33,437 nt of DNA from a virus. Taxonomy: Duplodnaviria; Heunggongvirae; Uroviricota; Caudoviricetes. Below the pieces are notes generated by a model, which saw only the letters and a program-made list of their open reading frames with translations, ran no database searches and was not told the DNA's origin. The position numbers were made by a program, and so were the translations under genes. The stretch lies in IMG/VR virus record IMGVR_UViG_2540341028_000013. The stretch is one strand, 5' to 3'. Shown one piece after another: positions 2,091 through 33,437 of this stretch; the stretch's first letter is position 1, and each line of letters opens with the position of its first letter.

Positions 2091-2132
2091 GTTCACAGAT
2101 AAAACACTCTCCAGGAAACCCGGGGCGGTTCA

Positions 2133-2333: not shown

Positions 2334-2341
2334 AGGGCGTT

Positions 2342-2581
2342 GTGATGGGCAAAGAATATAAAACTCTCATTAACAAAGCACTTGAGCGTTTTTATTTTCG
2401 CTTAAGTGCATCAGGCGCTCATGCTGAACGTGCGGCCCGTGACTCATTGACCAGAGCAATCCGAAGTCTGTATGACGTGGCTTTTTACGCTGATGATCTG
2501 GATGCACTTAACGAACTTTCCGAGCTGATCTGTGCCGCAGTGGATTTGCCCCTATATTTCCAGACATCTGTTATCACTTAA
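2342..2581 (+). pseudogene. Hypothetical small ORF whose 3' end runs into the IS2 terminus
   Basis: 79-aa ORF; last 11 residues ([11 protein letters not shown]) are encoded by the IS2 terminal sequence beginning at 2541, so the native C-terminus is replaced. Confidence 0.3.
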
Positions 2582-2805
2582 CCCATTACAAGCCCGCTGC
2601 CGCAGATATTCCCGTGGCGAGTGATAACCCAGCGCACTATGCGGATGCCATTCGTTATAATGCTCGAACGCCTCTGCAAGGTTCTTTGCTGCCGTTAACC
2701 CGTCTGGTTTGGGCATGATACTGATGTAGTCACGCTTTATCGTTTTCACGAAGCTCTCTGCTATTCCGTTACTCTCCGGACTCCGCACCGCCGTGTTCTT
2801 CGGTT
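2541..2805 (-). mobile_element. IS2 fragment (265 bp of the insD-proximal end), truncated by IS911 insertion
   Basis: Near-identical (about 1 mismatch) to 32521-32785 of the IS2 copy at the window end; starts with IS2 terminus TGGATTTGCCCCTATATTTCCAGACATCTG; homology stops exactly where the IS911 left IR begins (2806). Confidence 0.85.
2552..2805 (-). pseudogene. insD: IS2 insD 3' fragment (C-terminal ~85 codons)
   Basis: Translation ...[59 protein letters not shown]... identical to the C-terminus of the full insD at 32532-33437. Confidence 0.85.
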
Positions 2806-2877
2806 TGAAGTGGCACACTGAATTTGGCCACCTGAACAGAGGTGATATGCTCACCTCAGAACAACACAGGTGCTCCA

Positions 2878-4046
<1,169 letters not shown>

Positions 4047-4054
4047 CCACTTCA

Positions 4055-4660
4055 AACCGCAAAAAAGCGAACGTCATGCGCCCGGTGGAGTACCAGAACG
4101 GCGAAGCATTCACTATCCGTAACGTACAGGTTATGCCTGAATCCATTCCGGCTGGCTTTAAGGCACTGGCTGACATGAGTCCGTTTGAATCCCTGCTGAT
4201 TGTGGATTTGGGCGGAACCACGCTGGATGTGGCAAAGGTTCAGGGGCAACTGGCAGGTATCAGCCAGGTGTTTTGCGATCCACACGTGGGCGTTTCTCTG
4301 ATGGCCGATGCCGTACTGTCGGTGATGGCCACTAACGGTATGCGCACCAGTCACCACATCGCCAATACCATTATCGAACATCGCCATGATGAAGCCTGGC
4401 TGCGCCAGCACATCCACAATGACGCGCATTACGCCAGCCTGATGGCGGTAATTCGTGAAAAGGAAGAAACACTGAAACAACGCGTGATCCGCGCGCTGGC
4501 GGTTTTTTCGGGTTACGGGCGGGTGATGGTTGTCGGTGGAGGGGCGGAGATTGTGGCACCCGCTATCCGCGAAGCCTGCGGAGTTAATGCGACTTTCATC
4601 GCGGACGGGGTGCCACAGTTTGCTCTGGTTAATGGGCTGTACGCAATGGACAAGGAGTAA
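4055..4660 (+). pseudogene. parM: parM/stbA 3' fragment (actin-like plasmid segregation ATPase), 5' end removed by IS911
   Basis: Translation from the IS911 boundary: TIRNVQVMPESIPAGFKALADM...LLIVDLGGTTLDVAKV...GVSLMADAV...VMVVGGGAEIV matches the C-terminal ~190 aa of plasmid R1 ParM/StbA as recalled; N-terminal ~130 aa absent. Confidence 0.8.
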
Positions 4661-5039: not shown

Positions 5040-5630
5040 ATGAGCGAAATCAACTATCAGGCATTACGTGAACGTTATTCACCTGTGCCAGTACCGAAAT
5101 GCCCTATTTGCGGCGAGGAAATGTCAATTCAGCGAATATCTGGAGCACAGGTTGTTTATGCCTGCTCCGGTTATGGTGATGATGGAGATTTCAAAATTGG
5201 CCGAACTCTTGCTGACAAACATTATGAAAAATCACGCGTAACAGTGTTGGATGTCGGGGATCCTGAAGTATTGGCGCTACTTGATTGGCTGGAAACCAAA
5301 GACAACCGAATCGCTGAACTGGAAAAAATCGCCACTGACTATGCACTTAAATTCCAGAAAGCACAGGACGCATTAAAGCATGCCGCTTTGCTGCATAGCA
5401 GGACGGCGCAACAAACAAATAATTTTGCAGTATCGCTTCCGGACATAAGCGAATATTTCATTAATGACGTATTTCAGCCCTTGCGATACGAGCGGGATGT
5501 TGAAAGAGCCATCATAAAGGCTGGCGGAAAAGCATTGTGGCAGGAGAAACACGAGGACAGAACGCATCAGTCATGCGATGTAAATTGTGGATGGTTTAGC
5601 CCACTGACGACAGATAAAAATAACACCTGA
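5040..5630 (+). CDS. Hypothetical protein with N-terminal Cys-rich zinc-ribbon-like motif and central coiled coil
   Basis: 196-aa ORF; CPICGEE...YACSGYG motif; coiled-coil segment ALLDWLETKDNRIAELEKIATDYALKFQKAQDALKH; no family recognised. Confidence 0.5.
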   Translation: MSEINYQALRERYSPVPVPKCPICGEEMSIQRISGAQVVYACSGYGDDGDFKIGRTLADKHYEKSRVTVLDVGDPEVLALLDWLETKDNRIAELEKIATDYALKFQKAQDALKHAALLHSRTAQQTNNFAVSLPDISEYFINDVFQPLRYERDVERAIIKAGGKALWQEKHEDRTHQSCDVNCGWFSPLTTDKNNT

Positions 5631-17319: not shown

Positions 17320-19305
17320 ATGAGTACCACAACACGAAAATTTAAAACCATTATCACCGATACGGGTGCAAAAAAATTAGCTCAGGTAGCCGCGCCAGAT
17401 GGTAAGCCTGTCCGCCTGACTCATATGGCCGTGGGCGACGGTGGCGGCACGTTGCCCACACCAGACAGTAAGCAGACCCGTCTGGTGCATGAGGTGTGGC
17501 GACATACTGTTAATCGCGTCATCCTGGACGCAACACATCAGAACCGCATTATTGCGGAGCTGGTTATTCCTCCTGAAACGGGCGGATTCTGGATCCGGGA
17601 AATTGGTGTATTTGATGAGCACGGCGATTTAATCGCGGTGGGAAATACTGCCGAAAGTTACAAGCCAGCCGTTGCCGAAGGGTCCGGTCGTGCACAAACA
17701 TTTCGCACCATTCTGACCGTATCCAGCACTGCCACCGTGGCGCTTACCGTGGACAACACCATGGTGATGGCCACAGTGGATTACGTGGATGACAAACTGA
17801 AAGAGCATGAACAGTCACGACGTCACCCGGACGCCTCGCTGACCGCAAAAGGCTTTGTTCAACTCAGTAGCGCCACTAACAGCGTGTCTGAAACGCAGGC
17901 TGCAACGCCGAAAGCAGTAAAGGCCGCGTATGATCTTGCTAACGGTAAATATACTGCGCAGGATGCCAGCACGACGCGAAAAGGCCTTGTCCAGCTCAGT
18001 AGCGCCACCAACAGCACGTCTGAAACGCAGGCTGCAACGCCGAAAGCAGTAAAGGCCGCGTATGACCTTGCTAACGCAAAATATACCGCTCAGGACGCCA
18101 CGACGGCACAAAAAGGGATAGTCCAGCTCAGTAGTGCCACCAACAGCACGTCTGAAACACTGGCCGCGACATCGAAAGCGGTTAAGGCGGTAATGGATGA
18201 AACGAACAAGAAAGCGCCCTTAAACAGTCCTGCGCTGACCGGAACGCCAACAACGCCAGCTGCGCGACAGGGAACGAATAATACCCAAATCGCAAGCACG
18301 GCTTTCGTTATGGCTGCGATTGCCGCCCTTGTAGATTCGTCACCTGACGCACTGAATACGCTGAACGAGTTAGCGGCGGCGCTGGGAAACGCCCCGAATT
18401 TTGCGACCACCATGACTAACGCGCTTGCGGGTAAGCAACCGAAAGATGCCACCCTGACGGCGCTGGCCGGGCTTGCTACTGCGGCAGACAGGTTTCCGTA
18501 TTTTACGGGGAATGATGTCGCCAGCCTGGCAACCCTGACAAAAGTCGGGCGGGATATTCTTGCGAAATCGACCGTTGCTGCCGTTATCGAATACCTCGGT
18601 TTACGAGAACTCGGCACAAGCGGGGAGAAAATACCGTTACTCAGTACAGCGAATACCTGGACCAATCGACAAACATTCAGCGGTGGCCTTTCTGGGGAAC
18701 TGTCCGGCAATGCCGCTACTGCAACAAAGCTGAAAACAGCACGAAAAATTGCTGGAGTTGGTTTTGATGGTTCTAGCGATATTTCAATTAGTGCCAAAAA
18801 TGTCAATGCATTTGCACTCCGACAAACAGGTAATACTGTTAATGGTGATACATCCGTTGGATGGAATTGGGATAGTGGTGCATATAACGCCCTGATTGGT
18901 GGTGCATCTGCATTAATTCTTCACTTTAATATAAATGCTGGTAGCTGTCCTGCCGTACAATTCCGTGTGAATTATAAAAATGGTGGCATTTCCTACAGGT
19001 CGGCTCGTGATGGTTATGGGGTTGAATTAGGTTGGTCAGATTTCTATACCACGACACGAAAACCTTCAGCGGGAGATGTTGGTGCATATACGCGGGCAGA
19101 ATGTAACTCAAGGTTTATTACAGGTATTCGCCTTGGCGGTCTGTCATCTGTTCAGACATGGAATGGTCCCGGCTGGTCTGACAGGTCAGGTTATGTCGTT
19201 ACGGGTTCAGTTAACGGAAACCGTGATGAATTAATTGATACAACACAGGCAAGGCCAATTCAGTATTGCATTAATGGGACGTGGTATAACGCGGGGAGTA
19301 TTTAA
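17320..19305 (+). CDS. H: Tail fibre protein gpH (constant N-terminal part plus currently expressed variable C-terminal cassette)
   Basis: 661 aa; conserved P2-type N-terminus (MSTTTRKFKTIITDTGAKKLA...); internal tail-fibre repeats; C-terminus ...RPIQYCINGTWYNAGSI paralogous to the inverted cassette ending ...[17 protein letters not shown]. Confidence 0.85.
   Translation: MSTTTRKFKTIITDTGAKKLAQVAAPDGKPVRLTHMAVGDGGGTLPTPDSKQTRLVHEVWRHTVNRVILDATHQNRIIAELVIPPETGGFWIREIGVFDEHGDLIAVGNTAESYKPAVAEGSGRAQTFRTILTVSSTATVALTVDNTMVMATVDYVDDKLKEHEQSRRHPDASLTAKGFVQLSSATNSVSETQAATPKAVKAAYDLANGKYTAQDASTTRKGLVQLSSATNSTSETQAATPKAVKAAYDLANAKYTAQDATTAQKGIVQLSSATNSTSETLAATSKAVKAVMDETNKKAPLNSPALTGTPTTPAARQGTNNTQIASTAFVMAAIAALVDSSPDALNTLNELAAALGNAPNFATTMTNALAGKQPKDATLTALAGLATAADRFPYFTGNDVASLATLTKVGRDILAKSTVAAVIEYLGLRELGTSGEKIPLLSTANTWTNRQTFSGGLSGELSGNAATATKLKTARKIAGVGFDGSSDISISAKNVNAFALRQTGNTVNGDTSVGWNWDSGAYNALIGGASALILHFNINAGSCPAVQFRVNYKNGGISYRSARDGYGVELGWSDFYTTTRKPSAGDVGAYTRAECNSRFITGIRLGGLSSVQTWNGPGWSDRSGYVVTGSVNGNRDELIDTTQARPIQYCINGTWYNAGSI
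17848..18213 (+). repeat. Tandem in-frame 132-bp (44-aa) repeats within H, about 2.7 copies
   Basis: KGFVQLSSATNSVSETQAATPKAVKAAYDLANGKYTAQDASTTR / KGLVQLSSATNSTSETQAATPKAVKAAYDLANAKYTAQDATTAQ / KGIVQLSSATNSTSETLAATSKAVKA...; near-identical at DNA level. Confidence 0.85.
18584..18609 (+). repeat. gix/cix-like recombination site (left crossover site) inside H
   Basis: TTATCGAATACCTCGGTTTACGAGAA; about 20 of 26 positions match the reverse complement of the right site, including the central CCTCGGTTTAC core; encodes ...EYLGLRE..., the constant/variable junction of H. Confidence 0.6.
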
Positions 19306-19307
19306 CG

Positions 19308-19841
19308 ATGATGCACTTAAAAAACATTACTGCTGGCAACCCTAAAACAAAAGAGCAATACCAGCTAACAAAGCAATTTAACATCAAATGGCTTTATTCA
19401 GATGATGGGAAAAACTGGTATGAGGAACAAAAGAATTTCCAGCCAGACACTTTGAAAATGGTCTATTACCATAACGGCGTTATTATTTGTATTGAAAAGG
19501 ATGTTTCAGCAATTAATCCGGAAGGCGCAAGCGTCGTTGAATTACCTGATATTACAGCAAATCGCCGGGCTGATATTTCGGGGAAATGGTTGTTCAAAGA
19601 TGGCGTAGTGATAAAGCGAACTTATACCGAGGAAGAGCAGAGGCAACAAGCGGAAAATGAAAAGCAAAGCCTGTTGCAACTTGTCAGGGATAAAACCCAG
19701 CTATGGGACTCACAGCTACGGCTGGGCATCATTTCCGACGAGAATAAACAAAAATTAACCGAGTGGATGCTCTATGCGCAGAAAGTCGAATCTACAGACA
19801 CCTCCAGCCTGCCAGTAACGTTTCCCGAACAACCAGAATGA
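19308..19841 (+). CDS. G: Tail fibre assembly protein (gpG/Tfa), currently expressed orientation
   Basis: 177 aa starting 2 bp after the H stop; N-terminus [22 protein letters not shown] paralogous to the inverted copy. Confidence 0.8.
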   Translation: MMHLKNITAGNPKTKEQYQLTKQFNIKWLYSDDGKNWYEEQKNFQPDTLKMVYYHNGVIICIEKDVSAINPEGASVVELPDITANRRADISGKWLFKDGVVIKRTYTEEEQRQQAENEKQSLLQLVRDKTQLWDSQLRLGIISDENKQKLTEWMLYAQKVESTDTSSLPVTFPEQPE

Positions 19842-19869
19842 GAGAAGGCCCGATATTGGGCCTTAATTT

Positions 19870-20398
19870 TTACTCAGGCTTTTGTGGCCATTCGGGATTT
19901 GCTGTATCCACACGGCTGACCAGAACGCTGTAGCGTTCCCATGACTCCAGTCGTGTGCGTTCCTCATCCATCGCCATATTCAGCCTGACAGCGCGTTCCA
20001 GTGGCTGAATAACGCTTTCAGCTTCAGAAAGCAACGCGACCTTTTGTGATTCGGCCTGTTGTTGCTGTTCGTCTGCTGTATAAATCCGCTTAACCACAGT
20101 TCCGTCCTTAAACATCCACTTCCCTGAATCATCGGCACGACGATTGGCTGTTATATCTGGAATCTCAACGACACTAAAGCCTTCGGGATTAAGCGTTGGG
20201 GCATCTTTGGTTATGGCAACAATAATATTATTTTCGTCGTATACAATCTTTATGGTGTCGTCCTGAAAGTTATTTACTTCCTCATACCAGTTTTTACCGT
20301 CTTCGGACCATAACCAGATAACATCAAAATTCTTTGTTAGCTGATATTGTTCTTTTGTTTTTGGATTTCCGGACTTAATATTTTTTAATATGCTGCAT
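19870..20398 (-). pseudogene. Alternative tail fibre assembly protein (tfa'), frameshifted in codon 6-7
   Basis: ATG at 20398 follows the H' stop by 3 nt, but MQHIKKY* hits a stop; the conserved body ([20 protein letters not shown]...) is in the adjacent frame. Junction is a 6-T run at 20381-20386. Confidence 0.65.
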
Positions 20399-20401
20399 AA
20401 T

Positions 20402-21262
20402 TTACACCTGTGCGACGTTATACCATGTGCCATTGATGTATTTTTGTATTGGTCTGAAGATGGCTTCATCATCGCCATCTACTTCACCAATGATTCTTAA
20501 TCCGGTAATTGCGTGTCCGGCTTTTTCATAACGACCACCACGCGCCATCAATTGAACAACACGCGTACCCAGGCGAACATCTTTTACATAGCGTGAATCA
20601 AAATTCCCCCAGTTGCTGGGCTGTATCTGACCGTTAACAGAAAATATTACCGAGTTATCTGTATTTCGCTGGCTATAGAAATGCCATCCTGCCTCATTGC
20701 CTAACTCTGCAACTACTGGACGGGTTGAAGCACCCCATAAATTAAACGTTGCATTCTTTGTGGAGTTGTTGGAGCTGGATAGCGTGAATTTTTTACCATC
20801 CCCGGCCTGAATATTTTTAAAAGCAATAGCCACTCCATTCTGAAAGCGGAATACACGCTGACTATTAGCATAAACATCCAGAATACCGTCTCCATTCTGT
20901 TTAAATCCGGTGTCATTATCACCAAGAACAATAGAGCTACCACCTAACGCATTCGTCGAACCAACTCCAAGACTGCCATTAATGACAGCATTAACAAGAA
21001 TATTTAGTGCATCCCATTTCAGCGTCATCAGGTCTTTTGTTGTGGTGCTCTGGCGGCTTCTCCATTTGAAATATTCATTGCCGTTGTCGCCTGTTTCAAA
21101 CCACATGTATGAATCAGTGTCACCATCGGCATCATTTTTAAATCCAATCTTCGCCCAGTCAGTATTTCGAATCCAGGCAAGGATTGAGTCATTTTCAAAA
21201 GTAAGCCCACCGGACAAGGTATCGCCATTTTTTTGCACGGCGTTACCAGCCCTGTTTACCGT
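20402..21262 (-). CDS. Alternative tail-fibre C-terminal cassette (H'), silent in this orientation
   Basis: Frame open from the right gix site through ...[24 protein letters not shown]... to ...[18 protein letters not shown]; no start codon of its own upstream (TAA just left of the site); would fuse to H after inversion. Confidence 0.7.
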
Positions 21263-21288
21263 TTCCTGTAAACCGAGGTTTTAAATAA
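21263..21288 (-). repeat. gix/cix-like recombination site (right crossover site)
   Basis: TTCCTGTAAACCGAGGTTTTAAATAA, close to the Gin/Cin/Pin site consensus as recalled (TTCCTGTAAACCGAGGTTTTGGATAA); 55 bp upstream of the invertase start. Confidence 0.7.
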
Positions 21289-21342
21289 TGGCCGTTTCTG
21301 GCCTGCATGGCATGATTTGCGCTTTTGGACGGGAGATTCAGT

Positions 21343-21942
21343 GTGCTGATTGGCTATGTAAGGGTATCAACAAATGACCAGAATACAGACCTGCAACGAA
21401 ACGCTCTTGTTTGTGCAGGATGTGAACAAATATTTGAAGATAAATTAAGCGGGACAAAGACAGACCGACCGGGATTAAAACGCGCTTTAAAGCGCCTTCA
21501 AAAAGGTGACACGCTGGTTGTCTGGAAACTGGATCGCCTCGGGCGAAGCATGAAACATCTGATTTCTCTCGTCGGGGAACTACGGGAGCGAGGGATTAAT
21601 TTTCGCAGTCTGACCGACAGCATAGACACATCTTCTCCAATGGGGCGTTTTTTCTTCCACGTGATGGGTGCCCTGGCTGAAATGGAACGTGAATTAATTG
21701 TTGAACGTACACTGGCCGGGCTGGCGGCAGCGCGCGCAAGGGGGCGCACAGGCGGACGTCGACCGAAGCTGACAAAAGAACAGCATGAGCAAATAGCAAG
21801 GCTAATCAAAAACGGGCACGACAGAAAACAACTGGCAATAATTTACGGCATTGGCACATCGACGATTTATCGTTATCACCCTGTAGGCGATATACAGACT
21901 GAAGAAACAACCGGGCAGACTCAGGAAAATGAAAACCGCTAA
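21343..21942 (+). CDS. pin: Site-specific DNA invertase, serine recombinase of the Pin/Gin/Cin/Hin family
   Basis: GTG start 21343 (RBS GGGAG); (M)LIGYVRVSTNDQNTDLQRNAL...GDTLVVWKLDRLGRSMKHL...GINFRSLTDSIDTSSPMGRFFFHVMGALAEMERELIVERT, near-identical to e14 Pin as recalled, including the catalytic Ser in YVRVSTNDQ. Confidence 0.9.
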   Translation: MLIGYVRVSTNDQNTDLQRNALVCAGCEQIFEDKLSGTKTDRPGLKRALKRLQKGDTLVVWKLDRLGRSMKHLISLVGELRERGINFRSLTDSIDTSSPMGRFFFHVMGALAEMERELIVERTLAGLAAARARGRTGGRRPKLTKEQHEQIARLIKNGHDRKQLAIIYGIGTSTIYRYHPVGDIQTEETTGQTQENENR

Positions 21943-21970: not shown

Positions 21971-22465
21971 TCAGAACAGCCCTTTAACTGAACTGGCCGC
22001 GCTGTTAAGAGATGATGTCACCTTATCTTTGAAGCCGGACAGCATATCACTGAACGATGAGGATTGCAGGCGCTCCCGCAAATCCTCATCACAGCGTTCA
22101 AGAGTCAGTGAAAATTCTATCTTTTTCGCCTTACCGTAGCGATCAAACTCGGAGCGGGTCGTATTCGTTTCAGTCAGGACATACATGCCGTAAATCTGCC
22201 CGACGCCATCAATCAAAGGCCAGGGTCGTCCTGTATACGCCTGCGTAGTCAGCAGCGACAGCGACACTTCGCCACCTGTAATTTCAGGATAAAGCACACC
22301 AGAAAGAACGATGCGATCATCACCTGCACCGATATACTGCCAGCTTGCTGAACGGTTAACGCGTTCATTTTTCACATGCCGCCAGCTTTTGTTTTGCTGT
22401 AACTGCTGATGCGGCAGCGTGCGCAGCTCAAAAACAAACATGCCGTAGATCATCATCATGGCCAT
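21971..22465 (-). CDS. U: P2-like tail protein gpU
   Basis: 164-aa ORF; ...SWRH...LSG.LYPEITGG.VSL..L...GRPWPLIDG.G.IYGMYV... pattern as in P2 gpU. Confidence 0.8.
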   Translation of the reverse strand: MAMMMIYGMFVFELRTLPHQQLQQNKSWRHVKNERVNRSASWQYIGAGDDRIVLSGVLYPEITGGEVSLSLLTTQAYTGRPWPLIDGVGQIYGMYVLTETNTTRSEFDRYGKAKKIEFSLTLERCDEDLRERLQSSSFSDMLSGFKDKVTSSLNSAASSVKGLF

Positions 22466-22471
22466 GACTCC

Positions 22472-25315
22472 TCAATCTTTATCGTAAAAACAGCCACGCC
22501 CGGCACGGGCGCGCCGTTCCATTTCTGCCCTGACCATTTCACCGACCAGTTTCGCCAGTTCGCGGGGATTCTGCGTAACAACGTTATGCAGATGAACATG
22601 AATTTCACCACCAAATCCGAAGGCAACAGGCTCCCGGTTACGGGAAGTTACAGGAACTGATGCCACTGGAGATCGTATAGCCTCCGCCACCGGGCGGGAG
22701 CTGGCCGCAACAACAGGGACCAGCGCCGGAGGCAGCGGAGCCGGAACCACGGGTGTGATATTAATTGCGGGGGCAGGCTTACTGACCTGCGCAATCTTCC
22801 GCTCCTGCCACTCCCCACGAACAGCAAGTGCTCGGGGCAGGTTTTTAAAGACAATATCGCCGGGGCCAATGCGTTTTTTCGTCTCCTCAACCAGCTTACC
22901 TGTGTTATCAGCAATTTTGCTGAGTCTGCGCAGCGTACCGGTATTGCTGTCTGTGAGCGGTTTATTGTCTTTGGGGTTATCACCTCCGGTGCCATTGCCA
23001 TTTTCCACAGGCTTCGGCGGATTGATTTTCGCCAGATCCCCCTGAAGCAAGGCAACCTTGTCCTGAAGAATGGCCGCACGCTGTGCGTCTTCGATTTTCT
23101 TGCGCGCCCTTTCCGCTTCATCCGGAAGCACACCAAGCTTTTCAAGTATCCACGCCAGCGTATCCAGCAACATTTTTGCAGGTGTCAGAACAAGTTGTAA
23201 CGCACCGCCAAGAACGTTACCGAATATCTCGCCAGCACTGGTACATTTATCCAGAGTTTCCTTGCTGGACTCCATCGGTGACAGCAGCGATTTAAACCAG
23301 TTAAACACCTGGCTGATCCCACTCCCGATTGCGTCAAAAACAGGACCAAACCGTTCAAAGGTTTCGCGCAACGGGGTCAGCCTTTCCATAATCCCGCTGA
23401 ACACCCCGGCAAAAAATGCCCTGATGGGATCCCAGTATTTCCAGATAAGAACGGCAGCTCCGGCAAGCGCAGCCACGATAAGACCAACCGGACTGAACAA
23501 CGCCCCGATAGCGCCTCCCAGTAAAGAAACGGAACCCGTCACCATTCCCCATAGTGCTGGCAGAACCCTGACAGCATTCATTGATCCGGTCAGGAGGGAA
23601 AAACCAAGACGCAGTTTTGCCAGCGGGCCAGCAAGCACACCAATAGCCAGCGACAACGAGCCAACCGTTGCAGTCATTGCCAGCAATGCACCGCCTGCAA
23701 TCAGTAGCTGGCGCGTCAGTGCGGGATGGGCCTGCGCCAGCGCCGTCACCTTTGATACCACACGCGTGAGCCACTGCGTGACAGAACGCAGCGGACCGTC
23801 AATCAGATCTGCAATGCGGATGCGCAACCCTTCCCATGCACTGCTGAGTGATTTCAGATCGCCGTCAAGGTTGTTGGCCATAACCTTTGCCGTGCGTTCA
23901 GCCTCACCGCGCGCGCCTTCAAGTTCTTTTCTCAGTTTGGGTAAGGAGCCGTCACCTGCCGCATCAACGAGGGCCATAAATGATGTGAAAGCCTCTTCTC
24001 CGGCAATGTCCTTAAAGAACGATACCCGGTCAACTTCCCCGTATTTGCGGGTAGCTTTATAAAGGTCAGCCAGCACATCCTCCATCGGGCGCATTTTGCC
24101 CCCGGCATCCGAGACAGACACGCCAAGCTCTTTCAGCGCCTCTGCTGCCGCCTTTGGCGGTGATGCCAGACGAGCCAGGCTGGCACGCATTGCCGTACCA
24201 GCATCACTCCCCCTGATACCCATATTCGCCAGCACGCCCGCCATCGCTGCGGCCTGCTCCAGAGATATTCCCAGCTTACCCGCCACCGGACCTGCATATT
24301 TCATGGTTTCACCCAGTGCGCGAAGGTCAGTGTTGGTACGGGTAAACGCTGCGGTGAGTGTGTCGCCGACCCGGTCCATCTGGTCAGCAGAAAGACCGAA
24401 CTGCGTCAGAATATTTGAGCCAATATCCGCCGTCTCACCGAGGTCCATACCGCCAGCCGTTGCCATGCTCAGTACGCCAGGGAGCGCAGCCTGAATGGCC
24501 TGTGGTGTAAAGCCAGCCATTGCAAGAAATGCCTGTCCACTGGCGGCATCGCCTGCGGTGAACTGCGTTTCAGAGCCAAGTTTTAACGCCTGCTCACGCA
24601 GCGCCTTAAACTGCGGGCTGTTCTGGTCGATTCGCGTCAGTGCCTGAACGCGGGACATCTCTTTGCCGAACCCGATCGCAGGCTGCAAAAAACGCCCGGC
24701 AGCATAGCCGCCCGCCGCTGCCGCACCAATTGCCAGCGCACCACCTGTTTTCAGTTTTCCCGCTGTTTCCTGCGCGCGCGAATACCGCTCACGCGCCCGT
24801 GTTACACGCGCAAGCGCCTGCCGTTCGCGTTCAAGCTGGTTGTTGTACTGTTCGGTGCGTCTGATGGCCTGCTGGATGGTGTTATCGCTGCCTGTCAGGG
24901 AAATGCCGTGGCGTTTCAGCTCTCCGCCAAGCTCCCGCATTTTCTGAATTTCCCGTGTGCGCGATTCATTCAGGCGTTCAAGCCGGGTGCTTAACTGCTG
25001 CATCAGCTTTTGTTGTTTTTCGCTGAGCACTGTACCCGTGCGTTGTAACTGATTAAGGGCGTTAAGCTGGCGTCGTGCTTTCACGATGCCAGCATCCGCT
25101 TTACTGACAGCGTCACGGGCGCGCTCAAATGATCGCGCCTGACGCTCGAGATTTTTGATCGCCCCCTGCGTTCGCTGGATGGAGTCACCAAACTGCCCCA
25201 TCAGGCGGCGGGCGTTTTCGGCAGGCCGGGTCAGCCTGTCAACGGCGCTGAAAGCGACCCGGATATCAAGAGTCTTCATTGTCTGCATTCCCGCTACGAA
25301 GTGCCGCCCGCTCAC
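22472..25315 (-). CDS. T: Tail tape measure protein gpT
   Basis: Intact 947-aa ORF; long coiled-coil N-terminal half, Gly/Ala-rich hydrophobic middle segments, position between E/E' and U. Confidence 0.85.
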   Translation of the reverse strand: MSGRHFVAGMQTMKTLDIRVAFSAVDRLTRPAENARRLMGQFGDSIQRTQGAIKNLERQARSFERARDAVSKADAGIVKARRQLNALNQLQRTGTVLSEKQQKLMQQLSTRLERLNESRTREIQKMRELGGELKRHGISLTGSDNTIQQAIRRTEQYNNQLERERQALARVTRARERYSRAQETAGKLKTGGALAIGAAAAGGYAAGRFLQPAIGFGKEMSRVQALTRIDQNSPQFKALREQALKLGSETQFTAGDAASGQAFLAMAGFTPQAIQAALPGVLSMATAGGMDLGETADIGSNILTQFGLSADQMDRVGDTLTAAFTRTNTDLRALGETMKYAGPVAGKLGISLEQAAAMAGVLANMGIRGSDAGTAMRASLARLASPPKAAAEALKELGVSVSDAGGKMRPMEDVLADLYKATRKYGEVDRVSFFKDIAGEEAFTSFMALVDAAGDGSLPKLRKELEGARGEAERTAKVMANNLDGDLKSLSSAWEGLRIRIADLIDGPLRSVTQWLTRVVSKVTALAQAHPALTRQLLIAGGALLAMTATVGSLSLAIGVLAGPLAKLRLGFSLLTGSMNAVRVLPALWGMVTGSVSLLGGAIGALFSPVGLIVAALAGAAVLIWKYWDPIRAFFAGVFSGIMERLTPLRETFERFGPVFDAIGSGISQVFNWFKSLLSPMESSKETLDKCTSAGEIFGNVLGGALQLVLTPAKMLLDTLAWILEKLGVLPDEAERARKKIEDAQRAAILQDKVALLQGDLAKINPPKPVENGNGTGGDNPKDNKPLTDSNTGTLRRLSKIADNTGKLVEETKKRIGPGDIVFKNLPRALAVRGEWQERKIAQVSKPAPAINITPVVPAPLPPALVPVVAASSRPVAEAIRSPVASVPVTSRNREPVAFGFGGEIHVHLHNVVTQNPRELAKLVGEMVRAEMERRARAGRGCFYDKD

Positions 25316-25316
25316 G

Positions 25317-25534
25317 TCAGCTAACCACTTCGCCGGGCGTCATCATGAAAATTTCGGCGGGCGACCAGTTAAAAATGGCGGCAATATCCGCCACCAGATC
25401 TTCGATGTGCTCAAAGCACACCAGGGTGATTACGCTGCCGTCTCCTGCACGCTCTTCGCGCCAGAGTCTGGCTCGCTCATAAAATTTACAGCCACAGCGC
25501 ACAACTGAATAAAATCGCGTGACGACATTTTTTT
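25317..25534 (-). CDS. E' extension of the tail assembly chaperone (gpE+E' by -1 programmed frameshift)
   Basis: The -1 frame stays open from the A7 tract (plus-strand T7 at 25528-25534) to a stop at 25317 overlapping the T start; translation ...FEHIEDLVADIAAIFNWSPAEIFMMTPGEVVS. Exact slip position not determinable. Confidence 0.5.
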
Positions 25535-25804
25535 AATCATCACTTCATCCAGTCGTGGCGAGGTCACGCGAGGCAACAGCGTGAACATGGTATCCGCTTT
25601 CAGATTCAGCACATCAGACAGCGACAGACCACGCAGGGATCCAGCCTGCTCAATAGCCCCGGTGATCTCCACATACGTGATTTTTTCGCCACCACGCTCA
25701 ATTGGTCGGGTCAGTTTTACGCCACGTTCGACAGCCATATCCTCAACTGCCGTCACATTATCCGCCACGGTGTTATTCCGGGTTTCAGTATCGATGTCTT
25801 TCAT
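25430..25804 (-). CDS. E: Tail assembly chaperone gpE
   Basis: 124-aa ORF from ATG 25804 (RBS AAAAGGAGA); position between FII and T. Confidence 0.7.
   Translation of the reverse strand: MKDIDTETRNNTVADNVTAVEDMAVERGVKLTRPIERGGEKITYVEITGAIEQAGSLRGLSLSDVLNLKADTMFTLLPRVTSPRLDEVMIKKMSSRDFIQLCAVAVNFMSEPDSGAKSVQETAA
25528..25534 (-). promoter_or_regulatory. Candidate slippery tract for the E/E' -1 ribosomal frameshift
   Basis: AUUAAAAAAAUG on the mRNA; the -1 frame downstream is the long E' ORF. Confidence 0.4.
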
Positions 25805-25859
25805 CTGTTGTCTCCTTTTCAGTCAGAGGCGACGCACTGCGCCGCCAGCATATTACTTA

Positions 25860-26370
25860 TCAGCCAAGCCCAAGCGCGGAACGGATGCGATCGGGCACAA
25901 TGTCCTTGCCGTCCTTCCGGTAAATGAAGTTCAGCAGGTCAATCTCCCACAACGGGCGATCGTTAACACTCAGCTTGTAGTAGGTGTTTTAATGGCGTAA
26001 GTGTGTGATGTGGCTTCGCCCTGTTTGGCTTCCCCCATATCAATTTCCGTCACACGTCCGCGCATTTCGACTTCATACAGGTCGCTTTCTGCATCGGTGT
26101 AGTATTCACCCGCAAAACGCAGCAGCGTGCCGTCAATCGTGCCGCCATACTTAAGGAACAGCTCACGAACTGCGCCCCCATGACAAAGCTCGCATCAAGC
26201 GCGGAGTCGTCCAGACCGAGATCAATACTTACCGCACCCATCATGCCACCACCCCGGTAGCTGTCGGTTTTGCGCGTCAGCTTAGGCAGAGTGACGGACG
26301 TCACATTACCCACTTCGTTTTCACCATCCACAAACAGCGTAAAAAAGCGAAGATGTTTTGGCACAGCCAT
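25860..26370 (-). pseudogene. FII: P2-like tail tube protein gpFII, interrupted by two single-base homopolymer indels
   Basis: Three consecutive frames carry colinear tube-protein sequence: MAVPKHLRFFTLFVDGENEVGNVTSVTLPKLTRKTDSYRGGGMMGAVSIDLGLDD... / ...AVRELFLKYGGTIDGTLLRFAGEYYTDAESDLYEVEMRGRVTEIDMGEAKQGEATSHTYAIK / NTYYKLSVNDRPLWEIDLLNFIYRKDGKDIVPDRIRSALGLG*. Junctions at a G5 run (about 26176-26180) and an A4 run (about 25986-25989). Confidence 0.75.
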
Positions 26371-27554
26371 CAGGCACCTCCCAGCACCGCAAATGCGGGT
26401 TCAAAGTATTCATCAGTAAACGTCTGGTAAAGCTCCATGTCTTCCAGTGGCGGAACGGGCGTATATTTGTAGCGAATACGCACACGTCCCTGACGTAAAT
26501 CCGTGGTGCTGTTATCCACCACGTCATACCAGCACTCCGCGCCAATCAGTTTCCCGGCAGTCACCAGTGAATCCAGTTTTGCCCTGATGGCACTGATAAC
26601 ATCCTTCACATTCGCAGGCGTCAGTGGACTGTCGATGGTTTCAAACTGCGCTTCCGCAATTGAATCAGCCAGCACCTGTGCGGTTCGGGTATACACCTCA
26701 AAGATGTAGGCGTTCGTTTCCGGTGTGCGGTTACCCCAGAAGCGGAACCCGTTGCGACGAATAATGGTCGTGATTTCTTTGTTGTTGAGGCTGTTGGCAT
26801 CGCTGTCTTCGGCCTGCAACGACCAGAACACATGCCTCGACATCCCCAGCACATTTTTAACCGGAACGTTGGACAGCGATTTGTGCCATCCCTGTTCATG
26901 GTCAATGTACGCACGAAGGCCGCACGCATAGGCAGGCGCGGGGAACGTTTCGTTTTTGCCATTTTTCGGGTTGTAGGCGATGAAGTCCGGCCATAAGAGC
27001 ATCACCTCACGTTCGTTGAATTTCTGGCGGTAGGTAATTGCCTCGGCCATCGTGTTACAGCCATGACATGAGGCATACACAAACGCGCGCAGTTTATCTG
27101 CAATCACGCACAGGGATTTTGTTACCGCCTCCGTGTCCAGCTCCGGCGCGGCCAGAATACGCGGACGGTATCCGATGCTTTCATCCTGCTCTGCAACAAG
27201 CAGCGCATACATCCCCGTATAGCTGCCGTCATCCTCAGAACCACCGATAACCAGTTGATCCTGCGTCTTTCCGTCTTCTTCTTTGTGTTCAGCCACGCGA
27301 ACGACGATCACCTTTGTGCTCACCTGGTCTGCGATGGCCTTAAGCGCACGATAAAGCGTCCCCGTTGTCCCGCATTTTCCCAGCACGTCATTGACGCGGG
27401 TCAGCAGTGTGGGCTTGTTCAGCGGGAACAGCTTCGCGTCCGCATCATCCGCCGTTGCCACGATACCGATAACGCTGGAATCAACATCGTTAATCGCTGT
27501 TACCAGGTCGGTATTCTCCGTAACACGGGCACCATGAAAACGAGTTTCACTCAT
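26370..27554 (-). CDS. FI: P2-like tail sheath protein gpFI
   Basis: Intact 394 aa; ...FPLNKP.L.T.V...L...KGTL...L.AIADQ ... LRAFVYASCHGC ... GWHKSLSNV ... IRRNGFRFWGNRT ... YTRTAQV.AD ... YKYTPVPPLE, matching P2 gpFI (about 396 aa) as recalled. Confidence 0.9.
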   Translation of the reverse strand: MSETRFHGARVTENTDLVTAINDVDSSVIGIVATADDADAKLFPLNKPTLLTRVNDVLGKCGTTGTLYRALKAIADQVSTKVIVVRVAEHKEEDGKTQDQLVIGGSEDDGSYTGMYALLVAEQDESIGYRPRILAAPELDTEAVTKSLCVIADKLRAFVYASCHGCNTMAEAITYRQKFNEREVMLLWPDFIAYNPKNGKNETFPAPAYACGLRAYIDHEQGWHKSLSNVPVKNVLGMSRHVFWSLQAEDSDANSLNNKEITTIIRRNGFRFWGNRTPETNAYIFEVYTRTAQVLADSIAEAQFETIDSPLTPANVKDVISAIRAKLDSLVTAGKLIGAECWYDVVDNSTTDLRQGRVRIRYKYTPVPPLEDMELYQTFTDEYFEPAFAVLGGA

Positions 27555-27711
27555 AGCTTCAGCCCCTTGTATCCGTTAAATGATTCAGCAACAATCATCA
27601 CCCACCACGCGCGTAATCTCACCCCTGCGCCGTTCTCCCGCCACGGCGACAACAAAAAGCAGTAACCCCCTCCGCACGCACATGCGACCATGCCGCACAG
27701 GGAGGGAGCAG
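27555..27711. promoter_or_regulatory. Divergent intergenic region between FI (leftward) and D (rightward)
   Basis: 157-bp gap expected to hold the FI-operon promoter; contains TGATTCAGCAACAATCA dyad; whether any promoter here reads into D is unknown. Confidence 0.3.
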
Positions 27712-28821
27712 ATGACCGACACCACCATGCAATTGCTCAGTCAGGGCACGGCCCCCGTGAAAATGCCGGATTTTGATATTCTCTCGGAGGGTAAAACGCT
27801 GTCAGGCGTGGCGGAGCGCCTGATGAGCCTGTAACTGACCGACAACCGGGGATTTGAGGCGGACCAGCTCACCATCACGCTGGATGATGCGGATGGTCAG
27901 TTGCAGCTACCGCCACGGGGCGCGCGTCTGACGGTTCTCATTGGCTGGAAAGGGGAACCGCTGACAGAAAAAGGCACTTACATTGTTGATGAAATCGCTC
28001 ACGAAGGACCGCCGGACAGGCTGACTGTTTCAGCCAGAAGCGCAGATTTTCGGGATGAATTTAACGTTAAACGTGAGGTGTCCTGGCATGATGTGACCGT
28101 TGAGCGTGTGGTATCCGCCATCACTCATCGGTACGGTCTGAAACCGCAAATCAGCGAAATGCTGATGGATATCGAAATCGACCACGCCGACCAGACCGAA
28201 GAAAGCGACATGTCCTTTCTTACGCGCATGGCGGAAATGCTGGGAGCAATCGCCACGGTAAAAAGCGGCAATCTGTTATTCATCATGCCAGGTGGTGGCG
28301 TGAACGCACAGGGGCAGCCGTTGCCCTCGTTCGCCATTACACGCAGCAGCGGCGATCGCCATCAGTTCCGCATTGCTGACCGCGAGGCGTATACGGGGGT
28401 ACGCGCCTACTGGCTTGATCTTAATTACGGGAAAAAGAAAAAAGTCAGCGTGAAACGCCGCAAACCGCCAAAACCCAAAAAGGAGAAAAGCAGCAGTCGG
28501 GAAGGCGACTATATGGAAGGTGCGGAAGGCAACGTGTTTGTGTTACGCAAGACTTATCAGAACGAGCAGGCAGCAAGACGCGCAGCGGCGGCAAAGTGGC
28601 AGCAGCTACAACGCGGAGCCGCATCATTCTCCATCACGCTGGCGCGTGGTCGTGCAGAACTCTATCCCGAAATGCATGGCACAGTGACAGGCTTTAAAAG
28701 CGAGATTGATTATCAGGACTGGACTATTGCAAAAGCCGAGCACACCATTGATAACAGCGGCTTTACCACGCAGCTTGAACTTGAAGCAAAAATCCCGGAA
28801 TGGATAGCAGAAACAGAATAA
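27712..28821 (+). pseudogene. D: P2-like tail protein gpD with in-frame TAA at codon 41 (27832-27834)
   Basis: ATG 27712 (RBS GGGAGGGAG). One frame reads ...SGVAERLMSL-TAA-LTDNRGFEADQLTITLDDADGQLQLPPRGARLTVLIGWKG...WHD... to 28821, colinear with P2 gpD (...SRLVSLTLTDNRGFEADQLDIELNDADGQVGLP...); the stop replaces a single codon. Confidence 0.8.
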
Positions 28822-29069: not shown

Positions 29070-32000
29070 ATGATTGGACAATTTTTAAGTGCAACAGAGA
29101 TTTTAGCAAAGAACTATGTTCGTAATAAAATGGTTAAAAATCCATTTTATTCGAATTTAAAATGGAATTTTATTGAAAAAAACATCATAAGATTAACATC
29201 CTCACCGGTTAAATCAGTACTTTGCATATCAGCTTTTTCATTTGTACTACTTTATGTTGGATATTTAAACGAATTATTTATAAAAAATAATCTTTTACAT
29301 TATTTCCCGTTTAGGCATTCATTAACCGAATGGCAAACAACCATTTTAAGTGGCCAATTGACAATTATTGGTATTGTATACCCCCTTGTTATAGGTTTAG
29401 TAAGTGTCTTATTCCAAAAAAAGGCAGATAGAAAAATAGCCCAAACTGCTTATCAGCGTTACTCAGGATTCATGCTTGCTGGACTCAGCGGGCTTTTCTT
29501 ATCAGGATTTATACTTCTCAGTGTACTAATTAAAACTGTCTTTGGAAGTTATCTTTATGGTATAGCTTGTCTAATCAGCATATTATGGCTTTTGATAAAC
29601 ATAGTTCTTTCTATTTGGTTCTTTATCGTGAGTCTTGAAATTCTTGATGATGTAAAACGGCAAATAATTATAAAGCGATACATTGCCTTCGAAATAGTAA
29701 TGCCCCATATTTGTAACAAAATATCAGCCAAGCTTAGGTTATACCCTATCTATCAAAAACATAACTATTCAAATTTAGAAATCACGCAAGCCGATTACAA
29801 AGGAGAATACATATCTGTGGCTAGCAGTTATTCTAAGGAAGATGAGTTAAGTTTATATCACCGTCCTTTTCAACTTACTCTTAATCTTATTAATTACCAA
29901 CTAAAAAAGAAGAATCATTTTGCGTCATTTGTCATTGGTGATAATCGTACAAAAGAAACAGAATCCACGGGTAAGATACTTTTTAGCGTTAAAAATATCA
30001 AACCAGACAGCTTATTAATAAAAATACTTAAGCAATGTTTTTATAGGGCTCCGATTAAAGGAGGAGATTTTTCCGTAAGTCTTACAATGCAGGCTATAAC
30101 AGCAGATACGTATATGTATCTGCGGGATTCTGATCTCATTAGTTTTGACAATGCTATCTCTGCATTAATTAATAACTTTAATAATCTCTGCGATTTGTAT
30201 TTTTTTCAAGATGATAATACCAACAATAACTTCTTACTGATCACTACAGAATTATTTGAACGGAGTTTTCAATATGAGTTTTCAGATGAAGTTTATAAAA
30301 TATCAAATAATTCCATGGATAAAATTAATCTTTCTGAAAGATTTTTTGAATTATGTCTTTGGAGCGGAGTGCGTATTATCAATAATAGAAAACATCTTAT
30401 CAGCAATGAACTTTGTATCTATATGGGAATTACTCGTTCACAATGGTCAATATTAACAGAATGGTTCCGAAACAACCAATCACTCTTAAATGCCTCGCTT
30501 CGTTCACGTTATAATCGTATATTAAGAACCTATATCACTGTTTGGGAGCAATATCAAGAAAGCATAAACTTTCGTTTCTGCAATACAGAGAATTCAGATT
30601 TATTTGAATTATTTTGCAAAACGCAACTACAAGAACTTCCATCGATGATTATTGATGCAACACAGACTCGCGATCCTTCTACTATTGATACAGCCGTCGA
30701 TCTTATTAACCGATGGCAGCACTCAATGAATATTGACAGCCATTCGGTAGAAAAATACAGTTACAAAGGCCAGCTTTTTAACCCGGGTTTTTTCATATCC
30801 AAAAAACTAAACTTCAATTCAGACAGAGAGTGGTTCAATATTGCCATCATAAATGCGTTGACTGACATGCGTATATGCACATGTCTTTATCTGACATCAA
30901 GAATCAATACTTCTGACAAACTAATGACACATTACATTAAACTTATTTTAGAGGGTAAACTTATTGACCAAACCGGTGGATATGAAACTCCCACTGAAGA
31001 AATTGATAATGCAAGCCAACTAATCAAGATATTAATTAGAATCTGCCTGTGGACATGGTCTGAAAATATGGAGCACAATGGGTGGATGAATAGTTTAGCA
31101 AGGCGTTTACGTGACTATGATAAAACAGACATGGTGATGGGCAGAGTTTACAGTAATGTTTTTGACTGTGGATTTATTGATATGGAACAATCATGGGTTC
31201 AGCTATTATTAATTTTTTCTAACAAGAACGATAGCGTATCAAAAGAAATAAAAGAAGCAATAGAAAACAACTATATAACATATCGTGAGAAGCAACGACT
31301 CATTGGAGTATTATCAAAAATTTGTAACTCCATCGAATACACTAAAATCAAGCTGACTTTAACATTGGACGATCTCCAAACAAAAAAAGAAAACTTAAGA
31401 AAGTTGCTTCAAGAGCATATTAACATGCTAAAGAAAGATCTTGATATGAGACTTCAGGATGCTGCCATAGATGTACATCGACTAGATAGCACTGCACGTA
31501 AAACATCAGAACATCTTCGTAAACGCATCAAGAAAACGCTCCCTCTTTCACTTTTCAAATCTATTGATTTTAAGCAGGCTAGCGATTGTTTCACAAAACA
31601 TAAGATATCTATTAAGATAGATAAAGAACCGTATGCCGAAGGAATAGAATCCATCCCTTATATCAATGAAGGTGATATTCAAGCAGACTTAATTCTCAAG
31701 GACATCCAGAGAATAATACTTTCAAATTTATTTAGCACTGGCTGTTCGCAACATACCGTAATAGAAGATTTCAATATGTTGATTGATCACATAAAATCAT
31801 CTGCTGACTTGGCTGGCAAACTGGTTCTTGTGATGAGTAAAGAGATCTTTCAGCAATATAATCGTATGCTTTTCGATAATCCCAACCTCAGAGAACTAAT
31901 GAGAAAAAATGATGATGGCTCTATGAACATAACTACTGAATCCGGTACCCGTAAGGTTTACTTCTTACCATTTGTTAATCAACCATTTTCTCTTGTGGTA

Positions 32001-32189
32001 AAGGATAACTACTTCACTAAATTAATTATTAGAGAATATGATAATAATAAGTTAGTAAATGTCACTTCAGAGAATATCAAAAGTGACTCAGATAAATTCA
32101 AGCTAACTCTTAACTATGAGTTGAATATAGTATTTGAAGGAAACGCTGATTTAAAAATAGCTCACTCGCAAAGAGTGACATCAGAATAA
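29070..32189 (+). CDS. Large hypothetical membrane-anchored protein (1039 aa): about four N-terminal TM helices plus an ~850-aa soluble region of unknown function
   Basis: Uninterrupted 3.1-kb ORF in visibly AT-rich DNA; predicted TM segments around residues 50-70, 90-115, 130-155 and 160-190; no nucleotide-binding, nuclease or protease motif recognised by eye. Confidence 0.85.
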   Translation: MIGQFLSATEILAKNYVRNKMVKNPFYSNLKWNFIEKNIIRLTSSPVKSVLCISAFSFVLLYVGYLNELFIKNNLLHYFPFRHSLTEWQTTILSGQLTIIGIVYPLVIGLVSVLFQKKADRKIAQTAYQRYSGFMLAGLSGLFLSGFILLSVLIKTVFGSYLYGIACLISILWLLINIVLSIWFFIVSLEILDDVKRQIIIKRYIAFEIVMPHICNKISAKLRLYPIYQKHNYSNLEITQADYKGEYISVASSYSKEDELSLYHRPFQLTLNLINYQLKKKNHFASFVIGDNRTKETESTGKILFSVKNIKPDSLLIKILKQCFYRAPIKGGDFSVSLTMQAITADTYMYLRDSDLISFDNAISALINNFNNLCDLYFFQDDNTNNNFLLITTELFERSFQYEFSDEVYKISNNSMDKINLSERFFELCLWSGVRIINNRKHLISNELCIYMGITRSQWSILTEWFRNNQSLLNASLRSRYNRILRTYITVWEQYQESINFRFCNTENSDLFELFCKTQLQELPSMIIDATQTRDPSTIDTAVDLINRWQHSMNIDSHSVEKYSYKGQLFNPGFFISKKLNFNSDREWFNIAIINALTDMRICTCLYLTSRINTSDKLMTHYIKLILEGKLIDQTGGYETPTEEIDNASQLIKILIRICLWTWSENMEHNGWMNSLARRLRDYDKTDMVMGRVYSNVFDCGFIDMEQSWVQLLLIFSNKNDSVSKEIKEAIENNYITYREKQRLIGVLSKICNSIEYTKIKLTLTLDDLQTKKENLRKLLQEHINMLKKDLDMRLQDAAIDVHRLDSTARKTSEHLRKRIKKTLPLSLFKSIDFKQASDCFTKHKISIKIDKEPYAEGIESIPYINEGDIQADLILKDIQRIILSNLFSTGCSQHTVIEDFNMLIDHIKSSADLAGKLVLVMSKEIFQQYNRMLFDNPNLRELMRKNDDGSMNITTESGTRKVYFLPFVNQPFSLVVKDNYFTKLIIREYDNNKLVNVTSENIKSDSDKFKLTLNYELNIVFEGNADLKIAHSQRVTSE

Positions 32190-32520: not shown

Positions 32521-33437
32521 TGGATTTGCCCCTATATTTCCAGACATCTGTTATCACTTAACCCATTACAAGCCCGCTGCCGCAGATATTCCCGTGGCGA
32601 GCGATAACCCAGCGCACTATGCGGATGCCATTCGTTATAATGCTCGAACGCCTCTGCAAGGTTCTTTGCTGCCGTTAACCCGTCTGGTTTGGGCATGATA
32701 CTGATGTAGTCACGCTTTATCGTTTTCACGAAGCTCTCTGCTATTCCGTTACTCTCCGGACTCCGCACCGCCGTGTTCTTCGGTTCAAGTCCCAACATCC
32801 GGGCGAACTGGCGTGTTTCATTAGCCCGGTAGCATGAACCATTATCCGTCAGCCACTCCACTGGAGACGACGGAAGATCGTTGCCGAAGCGGCGTTCCAC
32901 CGCTCCCAGCATGACGTCCTGTACTGTTTCACTGTTGAAGCCGCCGGTAGTCACCGCCCAGTGCAGTGCCTCACGATCACAGCAGTCCAGCGCGAACGTG
33001 ACACGCAGTCTCTCTCCGTTATCACAGCAGAACTCGAACCCGTCAGAGCACCATCGCTGATTGCTTTCTTTCACGGCCACTCTGCCTGTATGTGCCCGTT
33101 TCGATGGCGGTACAGCAGGTTTTCGCTCAAGCAACAGCGCATTCTGGCGCATGATCCGGTAAACACGTTTGGCATTGATCGCAGGCATACCATCAAGTTC
33201 TGCCTGTCTGCGAAGCAGCGCCCATACCCGACGATAACCATACGTGGGCAGCTCTCCGATAACATGGTGTATACGGAGAAGCACATCCGTATCATCAGTG
33301 TGACGACTGCGGCGGCCATCCATCCAGTCATCGGTTCGTCTGAGAATGACGTGCAACTGCGCACGCGACACCCGGAGACAACGGCTGACTAAGCTTACTC
33401 CCCATCCCCGGGCAATAAGGGCGCGTGCGCTATCCAC
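32521..33437 (-). mobile_element. IS2, partial (insD-proximal 917 bp; continues beyond the window edge)
   Basis: Begins with IS2 terminus TGGATTTGCCCCTATATTTCCAGACATCTGTTATCACTTAACCC and encodes full-length insD on the minus strand; matches the IS2 sequence as recalled. Confidence 0.9.
32532..33437 (-). CDS. insD: IS2 transposase InsD (OrfB)
   Basis: 301 aa; the window ends exactly at its GTG start codon; ...[32 protein letters not shown]...WLTDNGSCY... DDE-type catalytic region. Confidence 0.9.

Follow-up and report, generated by a model that had tools for sequence, protein, structure and literature searches.

The viral record IMGVR_UViG_2540341028_000013 (IMG/VR; Caudoviricetes) is a stretch of 33,437 nucleotides (nt), analysed at its full length and called here the window. 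In it, the tail-fibre gene H of a P2-related prophage runs into two opposed cassettes of fibre tip and chaperone, the first tip being the end of H itself, and beyond them lies the gene of a serine DNA invertase. A preliminary description, made from the letters of this DNA, had read these genes as an invertible tail-fibre switch of the kind carried by phages Mu and P1. We find that the switch is real and that this first reading was correct, but that its type is already known, from the Shigella PinB system and from P2-like prophages of Escherichia coli. The locus is composed of the following features (window coordinates, strand in brackets):

17320-19305 (+): H, the whole P2-type tail-fibre gene, with Phage_tail_fib and three Phage_fiber_2 repeats
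17320-18596 (+): constant N-terminal part of H, the Sc equivalent (Pfam Phage_tail_fib, E-value 3.6e-53; Phage_fiber_2, three times, E-value 3.6e-61)
18584-18609 (-): left crossover site of gix/bix type, inside H at the constant/variable junction (from the inverted repeat and site alignment)
18597-19305 (+): variable C-terminal tip of H, expressed, of Mu S' or P1 Sv' type (from homology and PHROG tail-fibre families)
19308-19841 (+): expressed chaperone gene G, of Mu U' type, 177 amino acids (aa; Pfam Caudo_TAP, E-value 4.9e-36)
19845-19864 (+): GC-rich hairpin and then a T-rich tract, between the convergent chaperone genes (a terminator-like consensus match only)
19870-20398 (-): silent chaperone gene G', of Mu U type (Caudo_TAP, E-value 3.2e-35)
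20402-21275 (-): silent tail-fibre tip, the Sv' equivalent (Pfam Gp34_trimer; PHROG 454, E-value 5.8e-84)
21263-21288 (+): right crossover site, TTCCTGTAAACC-GA-GGTTTTAAATAA (from site alignment)
21343-21942 (+): Gin/PinB-type serine DNA invertase, 199 aa, GTG start, catalytic Ser9, intact (Pfam Resolvase, E-value 1.4e-50, and HTH_7)
21361-21432 (+): enhancer-equivalent stretch, +19 to +90 of the invertase gene, presumed to bind Fis (from its match to Mu gin and to the P1 cin annotation)

The inverted 26-base-pair (bp) gix-like sites proposed earlier were recovered by a repeat search of the window, which returned inverted-repeat arms at 18580-18609 and 21263-21292, and by alignment to the published table of gix and bix sites. 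The left 26-mer reads TTATCGAATACC-TC-GGTTTACGAGAA on the plus strand (18584-18609) and TTCTCGTAAACC-GA-GGTATTCGATAA on the minus strand, and the right 26-mer reads TTATTTAAAACC-TC-GGTTTACAGGAA on the minus strand (21288-21263). The two are equal at 21 of 26 positions, with a common central TC/GA dinucleotide and an identical 12-bp core, ACCTCGGTTTAC. The right site agrees with Mu gix at 24 of its 26 positions and the left site at 22, a match also seen in direct alignment with the Mu genome; moreover, the right site has a single mismatch to Shigella bixR, and the left site shares its outer half base for base with bixL (Table 3 of PMC3241671). In an alignment to gix, cix and pix, which the preliminary description had recommended, both sites fit the gix/bix rows with their GA core, the cores of cix and pix being AA. 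The degenerate 20-base gix/bix pattern TTCNNGTAAACCGAGGTNTTNNATAA occurs at only these two places in the 33.4 kb, with 0 occurrences expected in shuffles. The left site does lie within H at the constant/variable junction, where it encodes ..AVIEYLGLRELG, and the right site ends 54 nt (55 in the preliminary description) upstream of the GTG start of the Pin/Gin-type invertase at 21343. A third crossover site, of the kind that would make the locus a shufflon like that of enteropathogenic E. coli (EPEC), was also considered; the sole extra core-like match (19103-19116) has three mismatches, is no better than chance and cannot be extended to a 26-mer, hence we treat the locus as a two-site system.

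As in other Din-family systems, a protein with Resolvase and HTH_7 domains and the nucleophilic Ser is combined here with two inverted, imperfectly palindromic 26-bp sites whose 2-bp cores are equal. Residues 1-183 of the invertase align to the Gin structures 4m6f and 3uj3 (phmmer, E-value 3e-100), with MLIGYVRVSTNDQ, which contains Ser9, conserved; its catalytic domain is nearly identical to that of Mu Gin, and it differs from its E. coli orthologue by one residue. At the DNA level, Mu and the window agree at about 98% over the right site and the 5' region of the gene. In the first 110 nt of the gene the window and Mu gin are 100% identical, and the identity remains high to about nt 360 before it falls in the part encoding the DNA-binding domain. 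For Cin, the enhancer is marked in the P1 record at positions +19 to +90 of cin, and the equivalent stretch in the window (21361-21432) is identical to Mu gin at 72 of 72 positions and to the annotated P1 cin enhancer at 55 of 72. A site stimulating G inversion is placed within the invertase gene by the title of Kahmann 1985 (cited in PMC4513852). Given the 110-nt identity to gin, along with the P1 annotation, we conclude that the enhancer-equivalent stretch is conserved; the cis-acting enhancer of a Din-family system, which has two Fis sites and typically lies within the 5' end of the invertase gene, is thus recognised here from its sequence only, and Fis would be expected to bind it.

Two Caudo_TAP genes converge in the segment, each of them following a fibre tip, as expected from the two opposed tip-and-chaperone cassettes that had been described. 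Such convergent pairs, together with alternative C-termini that are joined in frame, are the arrangement of the Mu G, P1 C and Shigella B cassettes. In the expressed cassette, the C-terminal 165 aa of the tip are 87.9% identical to Mu S' and 87.3% to P1 Sv', and chaperone G is 96.6% identical to Mu U'. Judged from these homologies, the state of the window, with an S'-like tip and a U'-like chaperone, corresponds to Mu G(-), and the hairpin at 19845-19864 is likely the terminator of this cassette. The silent tip is more distant, having 55% identity with the C-terminus of P1 S and 47% with Mu S; its chaperone is 96.5% identical to Mu U, and the chaperones G and G', which lie tail to tail, are 55% identical to each other. 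Minus-strand translation shows the reading frame of the silent tip to be open through the right site, with a TAA directly upstream of the site. Inverting 18597-21275 in silico gives an uninterrupted H' fusion of 716 aa, and the gene annotated in inverted sister genomes is that same predicted 716-aa protein. The expectation that the silent cassette stays in frame through the site was therefore borne out. The statement that it has no start codon was slightly too strong, since the silent tip holds an in-frame GTG at 21238, from which annotation pipelines call a 278-aa open reading frame (ORF).

Two repeats that are not crossover sites were seen in the fibre sequences. The constant part of H contains three tandem 132-nt repeats (17847-18242), the later two 87% and 61% identical to the first, which are the Phage_fiber_2 repeats. 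A 40-nt inverted repeat (19252-19291 and 20416-20455), 78% complementary, arises where the C-terminal ends of both tips are conserved (..RPIQ.(C/Y)INGTWYN..) and thus exists because of the protein sequence that the two tips share; among the relatives examined, no rearrangement was linked to it.

The silent chaperone had been described as carrying a 5' frameshift inside a run of six T, with the reservation that the call might be wrong. The frameshift is real, but it lies beside the run, and the reservation falls, since the same insertion is present across sister Shigella assemblies. In intact relatives G' begins ATG CAG CAT TTA AAA AAT ATT AAG (MQHLKNIK...), whereas in the window it begins ATG CAG CAT ATT AAA AAA TAT TAA: a 1-nt insertion at 20389, after codon 3, leads to a stop at codon 8, with the remaining 172 codons intact. 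On the gene strand the sequence is CAT, the extra A, and then TTAAAAAAT, the insertion being two bases outside the T6 run (20381-20386). An error of homopolymer sequencing was rejected as its source: the T6 run has the same length in intact relatives, whose G' is a whole 175-aa gene, the extra base stands beside the run, and many independent Shigella assemblies carry it. Indeed, every sister Shigella assembly examined has the insertion, whichever way its segment lies; hence the lesion is inherited and older than at least some of the inversions. An exact-pattern scan of species-representative genomes for the frameshifted start of G' gave no match. Gene callers can obtain a G' product of 202 or 187 aa from an upstream in-frame ATG (20478 or 20433), and no ribosome-binding site is evident at these ATGs on reading the sequence.

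Inversion itself was followed in relatives of the window. Among complete E. coli genomes, the predicted inverted junction was present in 356 (counted at a coverage of at least 80%) and the native junction in 159. Strains UTI89 and NU14 are identical over 3193 of 3193 nt of the left flank and 2118 of 2118 nt of the right flank, and the 2662-nt interior of one is the exact reverse complement of that of the other, with sites that are reciprocal hybrids; strains 32F4 and 33E likewise show no mismatch in more than 5 kb of flanks, an exactly reverse-complemented 2662-nt interior and hybrid sites. Closer to the window, sister assemblies were retrieved by exact match to its G protein, and they carry the same G' lesion. 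Six of them have the inverted orientation (L016, L017, L019, L022, L024 and L025) and several the native one (L018, L020 and L008-L012). Compared with L016, the window shows no mismatch in the left flank or in the inverted interior, and compared with L024 none in either flank and one in the interior; L017, L019 and L022 likewise have hybrid sites and an interior that is, exactly or nearly so, the reverse complement of that of the window. In inverted relatives the left site is present as a reciprocal hybrid. Across relatives, both orientations are thus found with reciprocal exchange at the site cores, as in Din-family systems. Since the opposite orientation occurs in assemblies whose flanks are 0-1 nt apart, inversion is very recent relative to point mutation, and an inversion at the site cores has happened very recently in this lineage. 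The preliminary description had held that sites failing to align, or a lack of the inverted orientation together with an inactive invertase, would speak against a switch; what we observe is that otherwise identical genomes, sister assemblies of this prophage among them, hold both orientations, which speaks for a working switch.

Since all the structural elements of a Mu/P1-style switch are present and are homologous to those systems at the DNA level, the comparison made in the preliminary description is sound. We regard it as very probable, as to both identity and mechanism, that the locus is a two-state switch of the tail-fibre tip operated by a Fis- and enhancer-dependent serine invertase of the Din family (Gin/Cin/Pin/PinB); we are less confident that it is active at present. 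By analogy with these systems, dimers of the invertase would bind both 26-bp sites, and the bound sites would synapse at the enhancer in the 5' end of the invertase gene. Cleavage at the central GA/TC dinucleotide would then lead to inversion of the 2.68-kb segment, which would uncouple the current tip and chaperone from the constant part of H and join the other pair in frame to the same promoter and N-terminus. The state that is silent in the window would present a tip related to P1 S and Mu S and a Mu-U-like chaperone. From the homology to Mu S'/U' and P1 S, such a change may be expected to alter host range.

We compared the module with known systems. In DNA identity the segment reaches 89-94% with Mu, D108, P1, P7 and D6, and 96.5-98.6% with Xuanwuvirus phages and with Citrobacter phage Shae_phiSM. 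Invertible tail-fibre segments with pin genes have been described in Shigella (Tominaga, Ikemizu and Enomoto 1991, as cited in PMC3241671). The Shigella B segment with pinB (GenBank D00660) shares with the window the host genus, the 26-bp sites and the GA core. The likeness was drawn through the site table and the P1 record, which gives 93% identity of its central U'/U region to D00660, the window being about 90% identical to that P1 region. The window differs in one inner half-site (TTCTCG... and not TTCCTG...) and in its genomic context, a P2-like remnant. The G segment of Mu with gin (also in D108 and SfMu) has the same order of Sc, gix, Sv-U / U'-Sv', gix and invertase; however, the constant fibre part of the window is P2-H-like and not Mu-S-like, and the carrier is a P2-related prophage and not a transposable phage. 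The C segment of P1 and P7 with cin is the same two-state switch, with convergent Sv-U / U'-Sv' cassettes and an enhancer inside the 5' end of the invertase gene, and for P1 S, which is 56% identical to the constant part of H, the record lists a repeated element of 132 nt (a1). P1 differs from the window in its cix core (AA, not GA), in the length of its segment (4.2 kb) and in the position of cin, which lies on the opposite side, next to the site of the silent cassette.

Among the closest systems are also those of P2-like E. coli prophages and phages (EPEC E2348/69, UTI89 and NU14; phages 503458 and P88, genus Xuanwuvirus), which belong to the same family and carry the same module. Phage 503458 has an identical gene layout and 96.5% DNA identity, its module holding a gene annotated in RefSeq as 'DNA invertase', and the UTI89 prophage is 98.8% identical over the module. 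In P2-like EPEC prophages phase variation by inversion has been shown experimentally, with the orientations coexisting in culture (PMC4272514). One EPEC locus is a three-site shufflon, whereas the window has two sites, and the copy in the window is decayed, with a broken G'. In E. coli K-12, the P segment of e14 with pinE provides a case in which a Din invertase goes on flipping a tail-fibre segment although the prophage around it is defective (PMC4272514). It differs from the window in being lambdoid, in its sites, with their pix core (AA), and in cassettes that are not closely related, but it is the best functional analogy for the present state of the element.

The carrier is a prophage of the Shigella flexneri serotype-6 / S. 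boydii lineage, of the P88-like, P2-related genus Xuanwuvirus. Over 13,986 nt the window and AERO01000026.1 are 100% identical; that record is S. flexneri CDC 796-83 (PMC5429569). Of the sister genomes, the complete one CP055124.1 belongs to S. flexneri serotype 6 (PMC9455713). The structural set is of P2 type (Q P O N M L X, lysis, R S V W J I H G, FI FII E T U D, ogr), with Pfam GpU, Tail_P2_I and Baseplate_J found in the window, and each gene of an annotated E. coli relative can be placed on it. The label 'P2-like prophage' used in the preliminary description thus holds for the gene set, but not for the gene order, which is the Xuanwuvirus layout, in a defective copy. In P2 the order is H-G-fun(Z)-FI...D-ogr, with FI-FII-E-T-U-D co-oriented with V-W-J-I-H-G; the earlier remark that canonical P2 lacks the switch is right, as P2 has H-G-fun(Z)-FI and no invertase. 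The window instead has FI to U on the opposite strand, a D gene separated from U and, between the segment and U, an invertase, as in phage 503458. In the region 21971-28821, U, T, E, FII and FI are opposite in strand to V-W-J-I-H-G, and D comes after FI; since phage 503458 has the same arrangement of U and T downstream of the invertase, the rearrangement, which adjoins the invertase gene, looks like one at the level of the genus. The G+C content of the invertible segment is 42-47%, against 53-59% in the surrounding prophage, which fits a horizontally exchanged module.

This prophage has decayed heavily. Scored against an apparently intact E. coli relative, GDSC2BY4G, which is integrated next to ihfA, it carries the following lesions:

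7032: 10-bp deletion in the portal gene Q
10086: frameshift in the capsid gene N
11729: 10-bp duplication in M
13984: frameshift in R (GG to GGG), only in this assembly and possibly a sequencing error
25987 and 26175: two frameshifts in the tube gene FII
27832-27834: nonsense mutation in D, at codon 41

The lesions in D and FII recur in sister complete genomes. Elements of the insertion sequence (IS) family IS3 (821-4058, with orfA/orfB pairs at about 877-2090 and 2842-4046) have taken the place of most of the early region, of which an island of 409 nt is left at 2132-2540; parM is truncated at 4055, and at the right end an IS2-like element (32532-33437) abuts and shortens ogr. Given the gene lesions and the replacement of the early region by IS elements, we conclude that the prophage is defective; it does not have the make-up of an intact, inducible one, and a phenotype of the switch is for this reason improbable here. 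Like the P segment of e14 in E. coli K-12, the switch most likely flips although no infectious particles are produced.

Several observations weigh against a working Din-family switch at this locus. The DNA-binding third of the invertase gene has only about 55% DNA identity to gin, and we infer from the observed inversions that the diverged domain fits these sites. A simple scan upstream of the invertase found no sigma-70-like promoter. In some sister Shigella the invertase is frameshifted (A5 to A4, at the position of window 21500), which indicates that the module is decaying in the lineage. The silent chaperone is broken, so that the alternative state would probably not give assembled fibres. 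Finally, the case for flipping in this strain at present is drawn from assemblies of its relatives. The A4 frameshift occurs in the native orientation (L008 and L011) and in the inverted one (L016); either it arose more than once, or it arose after the last flip, or another invertase acted in trans.

Possibly, the locus is a frozen relic, an ancestral switch that no longer inverts in this strain, and the differences in orientation would be old events or events of other strains. The heavy decay of the prophage, the invertase inactivated in sister strains and the missing promoter-like site would agree with this. However, the window has an intact invertase, two intact sites and an intact enhancer-equivalent stretch, the opposite orientation is found in assemblies whose flanks differ from it by 0-1 nt, and homologous prophage switches flip constantly in culture (PMC4272514); hence we consider a relic unlikely.

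We give a good deal less credence to the idea that the fibre segment is a passenger, the host keeping the invertase for action in trans on other loci or for complementing other Din invertases. It would account for an invertase that has stayed intact though at least seven other prophage genes are broken; the frameshifted-invertase strains, found in both orientations, are compatible with flipping by another invertase, and cross-action of Salmonella Fin and Hin is documented (Kutsukake 2006, as cited in PMC4272514). Against strong selection of this kind speaks the loss of the invertase by frameshift in some sisters, and the A4 frameshift may be independent or later than the last inversion. It is, to the same slight degree, conceivable that a small cross-acting network persists through the decay, with the invertase used by the host or the segment still flipped by other Din invertases of Shigella.

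RecA-dependent homologous recombination between short inverted repeats, in place of the invertase, is hardly credible: the crossover is located only to within the shared 12-bp core, as that process would also allow, but 12 bp is far below the length of an efficient RecA substrate (textbook knowledge), the longer 40-nt inverted repeat has no associated rearrangement in the relatives examined, and the sites fit the recognition sequence of the adjacent Gin orthologue.

For an invertase-driven switch, which we prefer, the importance is small beyond correct annotation. The 278-aa 'hypothetical protein' or 'phage tail fiber protein' of this locus is the silent cassette, and the 'recombinase family protein' is the switch invertase; moreover, assemblies of the same strain may legitimately differ in the orientation of the 2.7-kb segment. 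The orientation can also serve to reveal very recent rearrangements when nearly identical Shigella and E. coli genomes are compared, and the locus offers a clean natural case of a site-specific inversion system that outlives its carrier phage.

Two further regions of the prophage were noted. At 5040-5630 (+), between the par genes and the portal gene, an Ead/Ea22-like protein is encoded (Pfam, E-value 3.6e-32); the same place in the E. coli relative is taken by a pseudogene with a PAPS-reductase domain, and the place appears to be one where the cargo varies within this prophage family. Between gpD and ogr, at 29070-32189 (+), lies an ORF of 1039 aa with a G+C content of 31-35%, against the 53-59% of the prophage. 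Several membrane helices are predicted in its N-terminal part, followed by a large soluble part, and it had no match in Pfam, NCBIfam, PADLOC, PHROGs, PDB sequences or phage genomes (tblastn); its E. coli orthologue is labelled 'MFS transporter' by PGAP. It is present in 5 of 5426 complete E. coli genomes and intact in most of the Shigella sisters whose phage genes are pseudogenes, and we regard it as a candidate moron or defence gene.

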